64,000 nucleotides of DNA from Candidatus Cloacimonadales bacterium (GTDB taxonomy: Bacteria > Cloacimonadota > Cloacimonadia > Cloacimonadales > JAFGVF01): NCBI GenBank assembly GCA_963667035.1, contig OY762964.1, positions 2,752,001 through 2,816,000 of the forward strand, in the 5' to 3' direction. Positions 39,001-51,000 of the stretch are shown piece after piece. Every line of letters begins with the position of its first letter. Within the stretch, counting starts at the first letter, position 1. Made by a program: the position numbers.

Positions 39001-42000
39001 AGGTTAGATTCGGTAGTTCAAGATCTTCAGGAAGCTTTATGTCAAAACCATAAGGTTCTCCTGTTGGTTTGAAATAAGTATCGGATTCGAGTATCTCTCC
39101 CGGTTTATAACTTCTTACCTTCCATATATAATAAGAGTAGAAGTCACTTTTTAACAGCTCATTAAAGGCTTCCTTACCCCCTCCTTCTAACTCAATATAA
39201 GTTTGACCGCTAGAACCTCCGAACATAGCAACTTGCCTGAAATCATCTAATCCCCAGTCGTATTTTACAGATAACTCTTTCGTCTTTTCGAATGCCTCTT
39301 CTCTGTTCATCGTAATATCAATATTAATAAATGACATTACTTTAGGGAAATAGTTAACAATAAAAAAAAGAGATGAGATTGAAATAAGTGTAAACACTAT
39401 CCAAAACCACATTTTCTTGAACATTATACCTCCGATTAGTTTTGCTAGTCACATAAAACCATAAATAAACCTTTTCATGTTCATCTTTTCTGATTAAGTT
39501 TTTAGTAATCAAGCTTTTTCTACAAATCGTTAGCATTTTAACGAGGTGATGCTTGATTTTGCTACTTAGCTGTTAAGAAAAGACTTTGACAAAAGAACTA
39601 GTAGTTTACAATAGAAATTGAAACTCGTTCCGGAGGAAAAATGAAACGTTTGTTAATGATTATAACAGTATTGTATTTAATGTTATCAGGCTGTACTGAA
39701 GACATAGATAAGATTGACTATACTATGCTTGAAGATGAAATATTCTTTCAACTTGATGAGATTTACAAGAATCCAGAATTGGAGAAAAATATTCCTAATG
39801 ATAATTTCGAACATCTCTTAAGTCAGAAAAGAGTAAAACTGTTTTCAAAAAGATTTGAAGCACTCCAAAAAGCAAACAACAAAATTGGTGCATTTTACGA
39901 GGAATACTACTACAATAGATTTGGTGAACTATTCGGAAATAACTATCCTTTAGAAAGCTATGAGCTGAAATCCTTTGTGAGACTTAGGGAATCAGAACTT
40001 GGTTTGGCTGAATATGATAATGTTACTGAAGCAGTAGTTGCAGAAGAAACAAAGAAAGACTTCGAGACAGGACATGCAGAGTATAGGCTCGAGACTAATG
40101 ATGAATATGTTGTTTACATGACTACTGACGATAATACTGTTTTTAGAGATGATGAAAACTATTATTATACCGGACACATATATTTTGGTGGAATACCTAA
40201 TCCGGTAGGCATGAGAGTAAGAATTCACTATAACAACATATCTGTGTATGACGAAGACAATGAAAAAGTAATCAAAGCATTATTAATAGAGCAACTTGAC
40301 CCTAAAAAATAGCTACAAGTCAATTAGGTTATTTTTACTCTTTAAAAACTGCTTTCAATTCAGGATTGTTAGGATCAATAGCCTTTGCTATTTTCCAATT
40401 ATCGTAGGCTTTTTTACTATCTCCCATTCTGTAGTATATGGAACCTAACTTGATATAGGCTAGAGCCATATTGGGTGCTAAACGGATTGCTGCCTTGCAC
40501 TCTAGAACAGCTTCTTCAAGCTTGCTTTGATAGTAGTATTTAGTTGCTTTAGTTATATGAATCAAAGCTTCATTTAAGTCCTTGTAATCCTTTAGCTCAA
40601 GCCGAACTGCATCAAGCTCTTTTGATTTTCTTAAATACTCATCCGTTGAAATGCCTGTAAACACTTTAAGTGTGTCTACGACATAAATAGTATCTTTGAT
40701 AATCTTCTCAACTTCAATATAAAGAGTGTCCATTGAAACCGGTTGCATTGACTCAACAACCTTCATAGGTTCTCTGATAATTTCTCTTTGAACTCTTGGA
40801 GGTATATGAGATGCAAGTTTATATTCCTCTGTTGTTGAATTACCGAGTTTAACTTCAAGTCCAATGAAGTGATTGCCATATGGAATCTCTAAATCAGAAA
40901 AGAGGGGGTAACTAAAGCCGTAATCAAGAGAAAGGTCTATTGATTTGGTATTTATCATTTCTCTATTGTTTAACGGATTTCTATACTTCTGAATATACTC
41001 TTTCCGTAGAACTAATAGACCTAATCCAAAACTCATTTCATTGTTATTTACACCACTTCTAAAAGCTAGATTTTCAGTAAGTCTATATTCTGTGCCTAAT
41101 GAATACGTAAAATCATTGAAGTCTTTTTCCTTGTAGCTGTTGTACGTTACATCAGAGGCTATTAACCATTGAGGAATAATGTTATACGTTGCACCTAATC
41201 CAAACTCTCTTGGCAGGGCATCATCTGCCTCTATTGCTAACTTTGTTTGAAATATATTCCTACTAACAAATCCCATTTGAAAACCGGTTGAGACCAGATA
41301 TGCTACCCCGAAGTCCATATCAATAGCGGATTTACTTGTGTCATTGTTCACAAAGAAAGGATCATTAGCTGTATATTCATTTGTTCCGTAGTCGATGTTA
41401 TATAGATTAAGTCCAAAACCAGCTTTCAGTTTGTCACCAAATAGATACGAACCAGCATGAAGGCCTACATGGATTTCGTTATATAAATCCGATTGGAAAA
41501 TAGATGAACTGAATGCCGTACTGAATTGATTGCCAATAGGGATTGTTAGAATAACAGCATTGTAATCCAAATTGTCGTTTTCGATACCATAAAGATATGC
41601 TCTATTATCTGTTAATAGCGAGAAGTCACTCAAATGAGCCAGTAAAGCAGGATTATAGACAGAAGCAGAACCATCATAGGATTGAGAGATTCCTGTTTTT
41701 CCCATAGAAAAATTTCTTATTCCGGCTTTCTCAAAAGTATAAGCTATTAGGTTAGAAATGATAAACAAAGCAGAAATTATTATTACTATTCTTTTCATCA
41801 CTTCCTCCCTACTTTGCAACCGTTATTGTGTTTAGATGAACTTTGCCATTAACTTTTACCTGACACAGATAGATTCCCGGAGAAACTAATTTCCCACTTT
41901 GATTTACTCCTTCCCAAACTGCTGATTTGCAGTTATAAGTCTGATTAGTTTCAGGATTTATATAATTGTATGTGCTACAGGATAACTTCTTAACCTTCTT

Positions 42001-48000: not shown

Positions 48001-51000
48001 CTATTAGGTATAGTTTTAAGTATAGTGATTATTGTTTTTGCCATTAATGCAAAAGGTAGTTTAGTAGAATACTTTGATCCAATAGCTTTGATGGTAACAT
48101 TAGGGGGAACTGTTTCAGCTCTTTTGGCAACTTACTCGTTTTCTAGCCTTAAAGATGCAATAGAATCGTTGAAAGTAGTTTATTTTACACCGCCCATACC
48201 GCATGACGATATGGTCGAGATAATGATTGGAGTGAGTAAGGATTCTCGTTCATTAAGTTTTATGGAAATTCAAAGCTATGAAGAAGTGCAAAATATCCCA
48301 TTTCTTAAAACAACTATTACAATGTTAGCTGATAATCTTCCCAAAGACAAAATTACTGATTTTCTTGAGTCTGAAAGTAGATCAATACTTAGAAGAAGAA
48401 TTCGTTCAGCTAAGATATTCGGAGTTGCTGGAAATCTGTCACCAATGTTTGGTATGATTGGTACAGTAATTGGACTAATAGCTATGCTTGGCAATATGAG
48501 TGATCCTTCTGTTGTCCCTAGAGCTATGAGTCTTGCTCTCGTTACAACTCTATATGGATTAATTCTATCTGTGATAATTTTTAGACCAATAGCAGGTAAG
48601 ATATCTTCAGGAGCAGAATATGACTATATCAACAGAGAAATCATTATTCAAGGTATCTCAGGAATTATTGAAAAACGCAACTCGGAGATAATTAAGACTG
48701 AGTTGACTAAAATTTATGCATAATAAAGACAACAATAAAGTTAATCAAGTTTTGTCTGATATCGAGGATAGCCTCATAAATACTCCAGACAATGATTTCT
48801 CAGGATTTTATTCAGCTTTAGTTCCTTATGCTGATATGATGACTTTACTACTCATTTTCTTCGTTTTCTATTTTGTCATAGGAGATACAGAAACAGGGTG
48901 GAAGGCTATTGCCGAGATACAAAAGAAGAAACTTAATAACAATATCCAATCAGAATCCATAGCAGAAACTGAGATGTATGAAGGTGATATTAGCGAAAAG
49001 GTAATATCAATACCGGGGAATATCCTCTTTGAATCTGGTGAGGCAAACCTTAGATGGTTGTCTCAAGATACACTTATTAAAATTGCTATGGATATAAAGA
49101 AGATCGTTAAAGACGATGATAGCTGGCAAATTCGTATAGAAGGACACACAGACAATGTTCCTATTGCCAATAATAAATATGCTTCAAACTGGGAGCTTTC
49201 TACAGCAAGAGCTTTGAGCATTGTGAAGTTTTTTATTAGAAATGGCTACTTTACTGCAGATCAACTACAGATTATGGGGTATGGAGAATTCAAACCTCTA
49301 GTACCAAATGATACAGAAGAGAATCGAAATAGAAACAGACGCGTTGAGATTAAAATCAGTCAGAAAAGATAGGAGGGATATTGATAGATTATTATAGTTT
49401 TTGGGATATCAAAGAACCACCTTTTGAAGATAACAATGATCCTAAGTTTTTCTATAAAAGTATAGATCATTATGAAGCACTTGAAAGACTGAAGTATGTA
49501 ATTAACTCAAGAAGCATGAACATTGGACTGCTTAGTGGAGAAATAGGAACCGGAAAAACCATTACAAAAATGGTTTTGATTTCTGAACTTAAGAAACAAA
49601 ACCCACATAATGTTATTGTAAACATTAACTCATCCTTGTTCACTTTTAATGAGATTATTACAGAAATACTCTCTCAAATCATGGATATAGATCCAATAAA
49701 TTTACCAACTAAGAGATACTATTTGTTTAAGAAACTTGAAAGATATATTGAAGACGAGTTATTATACACTAAAGGATTAATTTACATATTTTTAGATGAA
49801 GCTCAGAAGATTACTCCTAAAGACTTGGATTTACTAAAAGATTTAACTAACATTAACTATAATTATTTCTGTCCTGTAAAGCTAATGCTTATTGGACAAC
49901 CGGCTATATTGAGAAATGTGAAAAAACTTCCACAAGTTGATCAAAGAATTGGTATAAGATTTCATCTAAACAATATGAATGAGGAAGATACTAATGCATA
50001 TATTGATTACAGGCTTAAAGTATCCGGATCTCAAAAAAAGATTTTTAGTGATAGTGCCCTATCTTTAGTTTATAAAAAAACTTCAGGAATTCCAAGAGAA
50101 ATTAACAGAGCATGCAAAATTGCAATGGATGTAGCCTCTGCTGAAAAAGAAAGCCTCATATCAGGAGAAGTTATGGAAATGGTTTTTAATGATTTATCTT
50201 ACCATGGAAGAGAATGATAATGCCTAAGAAAAGACTCTCTATTTCAAATATTAGAAGTAAGAAAAGCGAGAATGAATCAACTGAAGTTATACTTCCTGAG
50301 TTAGAAGATAATCAGGCTGATTCCGACACTAAACTTGTTAAAGAAATTCCTAAATCAGCAAACCAAGGTGATGGGAATATCGATAATCCAAGAGTGAAAA
50401 CAGAAACTCAAGATGATCTAAAATCATTAAAGCATAATCCAACAGGATTTATCTCTAATCACAATGAGGAAAGCGAACCTTCGCTACTAGAATATCTTGA
50501 AGTTGGATACCGAAACAAATGGTTAATTCTAATCATTACTCTTTTGTGTATTATTGGGGCATATGTTTTACACATTAGAAAAGTTCCTTTATTTAGAACT
50601 AGAACTAAAATATTCATCCATGATGATTCAATGGAGCTGGAAGTAATTAATAATAAGCCATTCATAAAAGGGAAAATGGATGTTGCTACTTGGATGGAAA
50701 TACTAAAGACTAGAGATGTCTGTAAAAGAGTCTCTGCATACATGAATAATACTATATCTCCCCAAGAAGCTAAGTTGATGATTAACTGTACTAGCTCAAA
50801 AAATGAAGAAAACATCATTTCAATCACCTCAACTAATCCTAATCCAGTTATAGCTACGGACGTTGCTAATAATTTCTATCGTGCACTTAGAGATTATGAT
50901 ACGGAAGCCAACAAGCGTAACATTAACAAAACCATAGATTATCTTGAGCATCAACTAAGAGACAAAAATCACGAGCTTGATTCCTTAAACACAGCAGTAA

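Follow-up and report, generated by a model that had tools for sequence, protein, structure and literature searches.

Two described systems are among the closest to the locus considered here. The first is a natural FliF-FliG fusion of the Chlamydiaceae, which occurs in flagellum-free organisms (Bergeron, 2016; PMC4768692). According to the sections of that paper drawn on here, the chlamydial fusion is about 330 a.a. long, combines RBM2 and an RBM-like part with a FliG-M-like region only, is encoded alongside FlhA- and FliI-type genes, and is suggested to contact the injectisome (Bergeron, 2016; PMC4768692). The second is SprB/SprF, in which, according to the parts used of Liu et al. (2025; PMC12635249), a type-B substrate has its own carrier encoded adjacent to it, and the C-terminal tail of the SprF carrier couples to a motor-driven structure. 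The first-pass annotation of the present locus had claimed the first natural FliF-FliG fusion. That priority was rejected, since the chlamydial protein dates from a 2016 publication and other phyla have fusions of a similar kind: RBM-TM-FliG proteins, compared as proteins alone, occur in a representative library (P0055, P0057, P0081, and P0051), and Atlas clusters with similar RBM-TM-FliG proteins are labeled Elusimicrobiota, Bdellovibrionota, Bacteroidota, and Thermodesulfobacteriota.

The window, a 64,000-nucleotide stretch of a Cloacimonadota genome, encodes what looks like an apparently undescribed small envelope motor: a fused ring-rotor and an ion-driven stator beside an adhesin and an outer-membrane (OM) carrier. 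Literature searches found no description of such a system. The ORFs lie where the first-pass annotation had placed them, and its observation as a whole, namely a fusion gene with MotAB and an adhesin-like gene in a flagellum-free genome, was confirmed. In the genome, a single contig of 3.10 Mb that is 98.2% complete, six flagellar families, including FHIPEP, YscJ_FliF, Flagellin_N, Flg_bb_rod, and FliM, had no match in searches whose positive controls matched in 4-5 flagellated genomes. The genome yielded no export gate, rod, hook, filament, or FliM, and its sole FliG_C match is the fusion ORF.

The fusion gene (46596..47975, + strand) is separated from the divergently transcribed cargo gene by 125 bp (46471..46595). 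As read from the sequence, this intergenic region carries a GGAGG before the ATG at 46596, which is most likely the true start and gives a protein of 459 a.a. Its layout, established by Pfam, phmmer, AlphaFold2 (AF2) modeling, VIA, and Foldseek, is a signal or transmembrane (TM) helix, a periplasmic domain, a TM helix, and the FliG middle and C-terminal domains. The latter (aa 245-459; 47328..47972, + strand) match FliG_M (30.8 bits, aa 258-296) and FliG_C (51.1 bits, aa 357-438), both above the Pfam cut-offs, and phmmer aligns aa 253-444 with Aquifex aeolicus FliG (3hjl) at 1.1e-18. The torque helix lies at about aa 419-434 (LSERATMIFKEDIESL). Its charges are kept and Arg422 is at least 90% conserved, as had been claimed: among 31 family rows, Arg422 is present in 30, position 429 is acidic in 30 (Glu in 27, Asp in 3), and position 430 is acidic in all 31 (Asp in 24, Glu in 7).

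The periplasmic part is a ring-building-motif domain (aa 24-160; 46665..47075, + strand) with a low-confidence insertion that carries an invariant SLPGLPVxK motif; Ser57, Leu58, Pro59, Gly60, Pro62, and Lys65, numbered within the domain, are invariant in a 12-row alignment. The full-length AF2 model (31-row alignment, pLDDT 77.7) predicts an alpha-beta-beta-alpha-beta domain at aa 29-149 with low-confidence loops at aa 64-103, helices at aa 2-22 and 162-196, and a helical FliG part; by secondary structure and pLDDT, the second helix (47079..47183, + strand) is a TM helix followed by a disordered linker at aa 198-243. With this model, Foldseek reproduced the earlier matches to FliG (E 2.8e-9 to 4.7e-6) and the weak ones to FliF (E 6e-3 to 8e-2). 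Modeled alone (aa 24-160, pLDDT 72), the N-domain resembles FliF far better than it does within the full-length model. Its best VIA match is the FliF S-ring/RBM3 entry 8z5v (Z 13.0, rmsd 2.9 over 95 aa), followed by the FliF entries 6scn (Z 12.9) and 8z4d (Z 11.8), with SpoIIIAG (9.2) and PrgK (8.8) as the next folds, and FliF MS-ring entries make up 17 of the 18 top Foldseek rows (E 2.6e-6 to 5.7e-4). These models bear out the proposal that the N-terminal half folds like FliF RBM3. The predicted likeness is one of fold only: Pfam YscJ_FliF and YscJ_FliF_C do not match the fusion protein, and the family profile reaches FliF among PDB sequences only at E 0.55.

The gene that follows (47986..48723, + strand) encodes a MotA/PomA-type stator A subunit of 245 a.a., identified by Pfam, NCBIfam, and PomA alignment. 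It matches MotA_ExbB (84.5 bits), aligns over its full length with Vibrio PomA (1.1e-32), and scores 148 bits with MotP and 144 bits with PomA in NCBIfam, both below the equivalog cut-offs. The position of PomA Arg88 is Arg in this protein and basic in most orthologs. The module MotA does not conserve the acidic pair of PomA (Glu96/Glu97), a point against the motor reading favored below. The third gene (48716..49372, + strand) encodes a MotB-type stator B subunit of 218 a.a. with a plug (MotB_plug, 29.8 bits), an Asp in its TM segment (PYADMMTLLL), and an OmpA-like domain for peptidoglycan binding (OmpA, 66.4 bits). Of 21 MotB rows of the module, 19 have this Asp; in both orthologs of one genus (L044 and L045), Ser replaces it, which likewise counts against the motor reading. 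Together, the Pfam matches, models, and genome searches support a FliF(RBM3-fold)-FliG(M+C) fusion followed by flagellar-type MotA and MotB where other flagellar genes are absent.

The divergent gene (41809..46470, - strand) encodes the putative cargo, a 1553-aa repeat surface protein with FG-GAP (118 bits) and Big_5 (60 bits) matches in Pfam and a C-terminal T9SS type-B (CHU_C) sorting domain (the last 120 aa and stop; 41809..42171, - strand) that carries the motif ITPNWDGYND. The CHU_C match had been noted as falling below the cut-off, a reservation now removed: in a scan of its own, the 120-aa tail reaches 31.5 bits, where 27 are required. Of 15 cargo tails, 14 match CHU_C at E<=0.1 and 11 match TIGR04131 (type B), for which the window cargo scores 25.3 bits against a cut-off of 35. 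The cargo bodies differ by lineage (Big_9, cadherin-like, PKD), and about 90 aa at the C-terminus are conserved.

Wherever a locus holds both, the cargo gene is immediately followed by one for an OM beta-barrel of PorV/PorP/FadL type that continues into a linker in the periplasm and a TPR tail (40335..41819, - strand), an assignment based on NCBIfam, hhalign, and orthologs; its true start is likely the ATG at 41798, ahead of the signal peptide. T9SS-family scores are far under the curated cut-offs (PorV/PorQ, 32.3 bits vs. 90). Among 15 orthologs, TPR is matched in 15, Toluene_X in 7, PorV in 6, and PorP_SprF in 3, and hhalign aligns the family profile with the best PorV-like ORF of the genome at 94.6% probability (E 7e-8, 212 columns). 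The alignment divides the periplasmic tail (aa 330-494; 40338..40832, - strand) into a linker of DTV repeats, a helix, and two TPR repeats; Cys441 is invariant (15/15 rows), and the profile of the tail matches TPR structures. Barrel and TPR are a single protein here.

Newly established here is that these five genes, for a variable Ig-repeat CHU_C cargo, a PorV-like barrel with TPR tail, the fusion, MotA, and MotB, form a conserved unit across Cloacimonadota. A motif scan found them together in 33 of 35 loci (22 collinear, 8 divergent, 3 reordered) and a phylum scan, barrel included, in 16 of 20; in most lineages they form a single collinear operon. The link of the fusion and MotAB to the T9SS type-B protein and barrel is therefore firmer than first claimed. 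The variant loci L051 (two copies) and L056 instead encode just a separate TPR protein, with neither barrel nor cargo adjacent. Near full-length homologs of the fusion occur in at least 39 of 232 phylum genomes, from five families, and 27 library clusters match it at E<1e-30. The SprA translocon is encoded in the window's own genome and in 205 of the 232. In the largest family of the phylum, the fusion gene was found in none of 98 genomes though SprA is present in 89, which indicates that the fusion is not needed for T9SS as such.

A T9SS type-B cargo within the conserved unit gives the motor a concrete candidate output. The favored reading, at a probability of roughly 50%, is that a MotAB-driven mini-rotor moves or energizes a dedicated adhesin-carrier pair, like SprB/SprF in gliding. 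The five-gene machine would then derive from the torque-generating core of a flagellar motor, working in the envelope without a flagellum. The 459-aa protein could oligomerize through its RBM3-like domain, giving a small ring in the membrane with the FliG domains on its cytoplasmic side. Stators of the MotA5B2 type, which MotB would anchor to peptidoglycan, would draw power from ions passing the Asp channel of MotB, press on the torque helix, and so turn the ring. Instead of driving a rod and filament, the periplasmic ring face would act, directly or via further parts, on the TPR tail of the PorV/SprF-like carrier, which would hold the adhesin at the cell surface. The motor may move this pair in the outer membrane or help to pull it from the SprA translocon, and would be the counterpart of GldLM and the track acting for SprB/SprF in Flavobacterium; its cellular role may be surface movement, adhesion, or remodeling.

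Ring formation, rotation, and physical coupling to the carrier are what we infer for the fusion protein, and a non-rotary reading is, at present, unlikely but deserves real weight: MotAB may act on single fusion molecules as a Tol/Ton-like energy transducer or mechanosensor, with force or signal crossing the periplasm to the TPR-barrel for OM tethering, cargo release, or signaling. Tol-Pal with CpoB and the Ton systems have a similar part list: besides a MotA/B homolog and a TPR element, it comprises an OM protein and an inner membrane-anchored one with a periplasmic domain. The unconserved MotA acidic pair and the loss of the MotB Asp in one genus fit this reading, and a CheY-like receiver directly upstream of the fusion gene in two loci (with an Hpt protein in L100 and a kinase in L057) suggests signaling; these receivers count in favor of the motor reading as well. 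However, Tol and Ton stators couple to their partners through a TM helix, whereas the module has a cytoplasmic FliG domain that keeps the flagellar torque-helix charges, and its periplasmic fold best matches the ring-forming FliF, SpoIIIAG, and PrgK.

Downstream of MotB, Pfam and NCBIfam identify a co-oriented, tightly spaced EPS-export set (49381..54587, + strand): an ExeA/XrtA-associated-like AAA ATPase (49381-50217), a Wzz plus tyrosine-kinase Wzc-like protein (50214-52775), an SLBB plus LCP protein (52775-53857), and a Wza-like Poly_export/SLBB protein (53865-54587), all on the + strand. It is quite improbable that the rotor-stator serves polysaccharide export, energizing or gating this set (for instance, by powering the extrusion of polymer or by opening the channel of Wza) with the adhesin genes as mere neighbors. 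The window motor genes are co-oriented with the EPS-export genes and not with the cargo, and the genes from the fusion to the Wza-like protein lie on the same strand, -7 to +10 bases apart. This order is retained in eight loci of the organism's family, while L094, L100, and L101 have the EPS set, Hpt, and receiver upstream of fusion-MotAB-cargo-barrel on one strand; two distinct orders speak against pure chance. Yet EPS genes adjoin the motor in only these 11 of 35 loci (5 of 20 in the phylum scan), other lineages have the five-gene operon without them, and cargo, barrel, or both are also adjacent in 11 of 11 EPS-linked loci. The first-pass interpretation is supported in part, for the fusion, MotAB, and the T9SS link, and its weighting of an EPS role as equally possible is lowered to a secondary link, which the two gene orders keep plausible.

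That the module is a decaying, functionless remnant of a lost flagellum, once raised as a possibility, is extremely unlikely: canonical FliG and flagellar-type MotAB in other phylum members indicate that flagella existed in the lineage, but the orthologs are intact and full-length (28-68% identity, five families; all but one of the matches listed without stops), functional residues and gene order are conserved, the FliG part forms its own clade (SH-aLRT 96, in a quick tree of moderate support) outside canonical FliG, including the flagellar FliG of the phylum, which argues against a recent relic, and two genomes (G118 and G119) have a canonical FliG in addition to the module.

Like the flagellar motor core, the module has an RBM3-like periplasmic fold and FliG M and C domains with a charged torque helix, and like the flagellar stator it has a PomA-like full-length MotA and a MotB with plug, Asp, and peptidoglycan-binding domain. 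Unlike that core, its rotor is one polypeptide without RBM1/RBM2 or FliG_N, and a T9SS cargo and an OM carrier are encoded next to it. The EHPQ stretch of FliG, which we take to be the FliM-binding motif, is ENPE in the window protein (3hjl alignment) and is not conserved in the family. With the chlamydial fusion, as far as the cited sections describe it, the module shares a single protein that has two hydrophobic segments, a short FliF-like periplasmic part lying between them, and a cytoplasmic end that resembles FliG, but it differs in its RBM3-like domain, FliG M+C with a torque helix, and its own MotAB (Bergeron, 2016; PMC4768692). Its motor is MotAB with a FliF/FliG-like rotor, in contrast to GldLM and the GldK/N hub or track; GldL and GldM were not found in a search run without a positive control. 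The phylum is Cloacimonadota rather than the Bacteroidota of the GldLM/SprB system, and the tail of the carrier is formed by a TPR domain in which a single Cys is invariant, unlike the short Cys-X-Cys tail given for SprF in the cited parts of Liu et al. (2025; PMC12635249). Within the same scope of that source, the module resembles the Bacteroidota gliding/T9SS chain in its type-B CTD adhesin, a carrier barrel of its own whose gene lies immediately downstream, that carrier's C-terminal tail in the periplasm, an ion-driven 5:2-type motor, and the presence of SprA (Liu et al., 2025; PMC12635249).

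The locus is arranged about a divergent gap of 125 bp that lies between the cargo gene and the plus-strand genes. On the minus strand are a 494-aa barrel-TPR protein (40335-41819), here called the carrier, and, upstream of it, the gene for the cargo, a 1553-aa FG-GAP/Big_5 protein (41809-46470). The plus strand carries seven closely packed genes, namely the fusion gene for the 459-aa FliG-domain membrane protein (ATG at 46596, preceded by GGAGG), MotA (47986-48723), MotB (48716-49372), and, after MotB, an ExeA/XrtA-associated-like AAA ATPase, a Wzz and tyrosine-kinase protein, an SLBB and LCP protein, and a Wza-like exporter (49381-54587). 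The G+C content is 32-36% over the entire window, and the locus shows no step. The first-pass annotation had described a FliF-FliG fusion with its own MotAB beside a type-B T9SS protein, and this observation as a whole is borne out by the genes present, their folds, key residues and synteny. Lying within a few kb of the module, on the minus strand, are genes for a CHASE2-adenylate/guanylate cyclase (704 aa) and an SH3-M48 peptidase (412 aa; together 32282-35631), and between these and the module lie a DUF4901-repeat protein of 1104 aa (36110-39424) and a 223-aa ORF that matches no family (39641-40312).

According to the AlphaFold2 model (pLDDT 77.7), the fusion consists of: (i) a helix at aa 2-22; (ii) an alpha-beta-beta-alpha-beta domain at aa 29-149; (iii) a transmembrane helix at aa 162-196; (iv) a disordered linker at aa 198-243; and (v) a confidently modelled, helical FliG part. 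The Foldseek figures first given for the whole model were reproduced. When the N-domain (aa 24-160) was folded separately with 21 orthologues (pLDDT 72), its best matches in an all-against-all structural search were FliF S-ring/RBM3 structures, with Z scores of 13.0 (rmsd 2.9 over 95 aa), 12.9 and 11.8, followed by SpoIIIAG (Z 9.2), PrgK (Z 8.8) and EscJ (Z 8.2). FliF MS-ring entries likewise fill 17 of the 18 top Foldseek rows (E 2.6e-6). The domain has the RBM3 arrangement, alpha-beta-beta-alpha-beta with an insertion between beta1 and beta2; the insertion (aa 64-103) is of low confidence in the monomer models and holds an invariant SLPG(L/I)P(V/I)xK motif. RBM1 and RBM2 are missing from the AlphaFold2 model, which has a single alpha-beta-beta-alpha-beta unit between two hydrophobic helices. 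Sequence profiles do not place the domain in the FliF family: the Pfam models YscJ_FliF and YscJ_FliF_C find no match on the fusion at E<=1, FliF family models reach 15.4 and 13.7 bits on the related library proteins P0081 and P0055 (cut-off 23.8), and a family profile of the N-domain against PDB sequences stays at chance level (FliF E 0.55; SAM synthetase E 0.4, taken as noise). The N-terminal half has the RBM3 fold but no FliF family-model match, and is therefore best termed FliF-like rather than a demonstrated member of the FliF family. FliF itself assembles into a ring of about 34 subunits, and the fusion would presumably form a ring and rotate.

The cytoplasmic half carries FliG domains. 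FliG_C scores 51.1 bits against a Pfam cut-off of 23.3, and FliG_M scores 30.8 against 25, covering only positions 3-41 of the 76 in the profile; the middle-domain region is modelled as helical with a pLDDT above 85. FliG_N, which in FliG binds the C-terminus of FliF, finds no Pfam match in the fusion, where the TM helix and the disordered linker precede aa 245, and the full FliG equivalog TIGR00207 is far from being reached (75.7 bits against a cut-off of 226.7). In a phmmer search against solved structures, FliG of A. aeolicus (3hjl) was matched at 1.1e-18 across aa 253-444, and 1lkv also aligned. The torque helix of the fusion, LSERATMIFKEDIESLG, pairs with MSKRAAKLFLEDMEALG of solved FliG in the phmmer alignment. 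Its charged residues are well kept in a family alignment of 31 rows: R422 is conserved in 30, position 429 is Glu in 27 and Asp in 3, and position 430 is Asp in 24 and Glu in 7. In the middle domain of FliG, EHPQ is the FliM-binding stretch; the fusion has ENPE there, and the family does not conserve it. This difference fits the absence of FliM from the genome.

The stator proteins are also recognizable. MotA matches Vibrio PomA over its full length (1.1e-32 over aa 1-240). The rotor-facing charged residues of MotA correspond to R88/K89 and E96/E97 of PomA. The R88 position is Arg in the window MotA and Arg, Lys or His in nearly all of the 22 module rows, while the positions of E96/E97 are not conserved and acidic residues occur nearby. 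MotB has a MotB_plug (29.8 bits) and an OmpA domain (66.4 bits), with the transmembrane Asp in PYADMMTLLL, and this channel Asp is conserved in 19 of 21 module rows. NCBIfam equivalog cut-offs are missed by the stator (148 against 394). The two MotB rows that lack the Asp, both from one genus, have Ser: at L044 (11449-12033, genome G119) and L045 (7964-8548, genome G118) the module MotB is short (194 aa) and reads SFASLM in place of PYADLM, whereas all other module and flagellar MotB rows have Asp. Both genomes additionally hold a canonical FliG and further MotAB pairs.

The source genome is a single contig of 3.10 Mb, 98.2% complete, in which FHIPEP, YscJ_FliF, Flagellin_N, Flg_bb_rod and FliM have no matches, each of these models being positive in 4-5 flagellated controls. 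FliG_C matches only the fusion ORF. When 232 genomes of the phylum were scanned in six frames, at least 39 of them, from five families, proved to hold a near full-length homologue of the fusion (28-68% identity), and none of the 98 genomes of the largest family did. Other genomes match at aa ~240-438 only, in ORFs of ~340-396 aa that are ordinary FliG, and fusion and ordinary FliG coexist in G118 and G119. A library at 50% identity yielded 27 clusters at E<1e-30, and scanning 185,579 species for the motif, with one genome for each, returned 35 loci: 31 labelled Cloacimonadota/Cloacimonadales (two of them Tenebribacter), two labelled "uncultured bacterium", and two Neomarinimicrobiota. Four library proteins from G+C-richer organisms (P0055, P0057, P0081, P0051) share the plan of the fusion: an RBM domain containing S(L/M)PG is followed by a TM helix, a linker and FliG sequence. 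Look-alike clusters in the Atlas, to be taken as leads only, bear the labels Elusimicrobiota (YscJ_FliF_C on 55% of members), Bdellovibrionota, Bacteroidota and Thermodesulfobacteriota. A separate non-canonical FliG architecture was seen in P0048, P0065, P0078, P0038 and P0045, which are cytoplasmic library proteins of 456-996 aa with two tandem FliG M/C units and neither RBM nor TM segment.

The ancestry of the FliG part was addressed with a quick maximum-likelihood tree of the M+C region (66 rows, unrooted, SH-aLRT support only). All 21 module rows group in a single clade (support 96), and a canonical FliG group of 41 rows (support 89) includes four FliG of flagellated Cloacimonadota. Four fusions from other organisms branch outside the canonical group. 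Since the module clade stands apart from the phylum's own flagellar FliG, the module is not a recent leftover of the lineage's flagellum, and its explanation as the relic of a lost flagellum is rejected.

Gene order ties the fusion to its partners. In a first set of 20 loci (+/-10 kb each), the fusion gene is without exception followed by MotA and MotB, and the barrel-TPR gene is present in 16. Eleven of these 16 are collinear, with cargo, barrel-TPR, fusion, MotA and MotB on one strand and gaps of a few bases; the other five, all from the window's family, are divergent like the window. The 35 motif-scan loci, which share some genomes with the first set, comprise 22 that are collinear, 8 that are divergent with the EPS set downstream, and 3 (L094, L100, L101) with the EPS set upstream and, after it, the five module genes on one strand in the order fusion, MotA, MotB, cargo, barrel; at the remaining two (L090, L102) cargo and barrel are both missing from the available flanking DNA. 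The EPS genes thus adjoin the motor in 11 of 35 loci, in two different orders. In the window, this set (49381-54587, plus strand) is similar to XrtA/PEP-CTERM-type loci (TIGR03015 at 141 bits, TIGR03018, TIGR03007 and TIGR03027, all below their cut-offs); the operon has no glycosyltransferase, and a convergent MatE/Polysacc_synt flippase gene lies at 54580-55926. Variant loci also occur. At L051 and L056 a separate TPR protein of 371-379 aa lies directly 3' of MotB, and at L055 a Por_Secre_tail cargo lies upstream. In L051 (7586-16072, genome G144) the variant module of fusion, MotA, MotB and TPR protein is tandemly duplicated, without an adjoining barrel or cargo. Immediately 5' of the fusion gene, L100 has an Hpt protein and a single-domain CheY-like receiver (5292-5911), and L057 has a hybrid kinase and such a receiver (7318-9234). 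These receiver neighbours hint at phosphorelay control of the rotor.

The cargo bodies vary among lineages (FG-GAP, Big_5, Big_9, cadherin-like, PKD), and the last ~90 aa are alignable, with the motif TPNxDGxND, which is ITPNWDGYND in the window's family. The CHU_C sorting domain had been reported as below cut-off, which stands for the whole window protein (24.8 bits) and not for its last 120 aa alone (31.5 against 27). CHU_C is found in 14 of 15 orthologous tails and TIGR04131 in 11 of 15, the latter scoring 25.3 on the window cargo against a cut-off of 35. The barrel gene is immediately 3' of the cargo gene at every locus holding both. Its PorV-like match is indeed below the curated cut-off, as first noted (NF033709, 32.3 against 90), and the orthologues match weakly to PorV (6/15), PorP_SprF (3/15) and Toluene_X (FadL; 7/15). 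On the other hand, the barrel family profile aligns with the genome's best PorV-like ORF at 94.6% probability (hhalign, E 7e-8). The tail of the barrel protein consists of a DTV-repeat linker, a helix and two TPR repeats. Within this TPR tail (40338-40832, minus strand) Cys441 is invariant in 15 of 15 orthologues. In Flavobacterium, disulfide bonds join the carrier tails to the gliding track (PMC12635249). The periplasmic domain of the fusion showed no conserved Cys. Complex predictions of the periplasmic RBM domain with the linker-TPR tail gave 0.17 and 0.14 against a mark of 0.32, values which, run without controls, count neither for nor against binding.

The source genome encodes SprA (SprA_N 51.4 bits, in a 2063-aa ORF), as do 205 of the 232 phylum genomes in total. 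Searches run without a positive control gave no match to GldL (TIGR03513) in the source genome and none to GldM_1st in five complete phylum genomes. The idea that the module replaces GldLM in all T9SS transport is rejected, because in the largest family 89 of 98 genomes have SprA and none of the 98 has the fusion. Elsewhere on the source contig (1883239-1885641, loci L008 and L066, outside the window), a long ORF that MotA_ExbB matches weakly (23 bits) comes after a PorV-like barrel ORF of 327 aa; this pair may be another T9SS-linked energy module.

The module is best read as a FliF/FliG-like mini-rotor that MotAB would drive without any flagellum and that would serve its own type-B T9SS adhesin-carrier pair. 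Its link to EPS export would be lineage-specific, and some lineages would place it under phosphorelay control. We infer contact of the mini-rotor with the TPR tail, as well as its cellular role. Few ion-driven rotary machines are known, and no rotor-stator pair of the flagellar kind is known to have been seen other than as part of a flagellum. A wider proposal, tentative and given a probability of about 0.3, is that the module represents a second kind of rotary engine that moves or extracts T9SS surface proteins: MotAB would turn a FliF/FliG ring made of one kind of polypeptide, and a carrier barrel with a TPR tail would connect this ring to a type-B adhesin. The engine would be one member of a larger, undescribed family of envelope motors that combine FliF-FliG with MotAB, occur in several phyla without a flagellum and have a FliG lineage branching apart from canonical FliG. 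A pre-flagellar rotor could be the ancestor of this family or merely something that it resembles. A conserved, stripped-down FliF/FliG ring with MotAB and another output would mean that the torque core can work, or once worked, outside the flagellum. Its association with a type-B T9SS adhesin and the carrier of that adhesin provides a testable output. The association also suggests that Cloacimonadota, where searches for GldLM found nothing, may drive one or more surface adhesins in another way.

Among known systems, the module cannot be called the first natural FliF-FliG fusion, as the first-pass annotation proposed, because a Chlamydiaceae fusion had already been described (Bergeron 2016). 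That protein combines RBM2 with a FliG-M-like end in about 330 aa (PMC4768692). The literature outside subscription journals yielded only this fusion of Chlamydia and fusions engineered in Vibrio and Salmonella, and no account of a flagellum-independent FliF-FliG fusion that has MotAB of its own. The accessible part of a MotAB survey sets flagellar and generic stators apart, and a FliG-fused partner goes unmentioned there (PMC12505986). Rotor proteins in non-motile genomes have been noted, with another function raised as a question (PMC12199754), and the title of a further paper claims that type-B proteins anchor to PorP-like proteins (PMC9143113). Bacteroidota gliding, with its SprB/SprF and GldLM parts (PMC12635249), is the nearest working analogy to the module.
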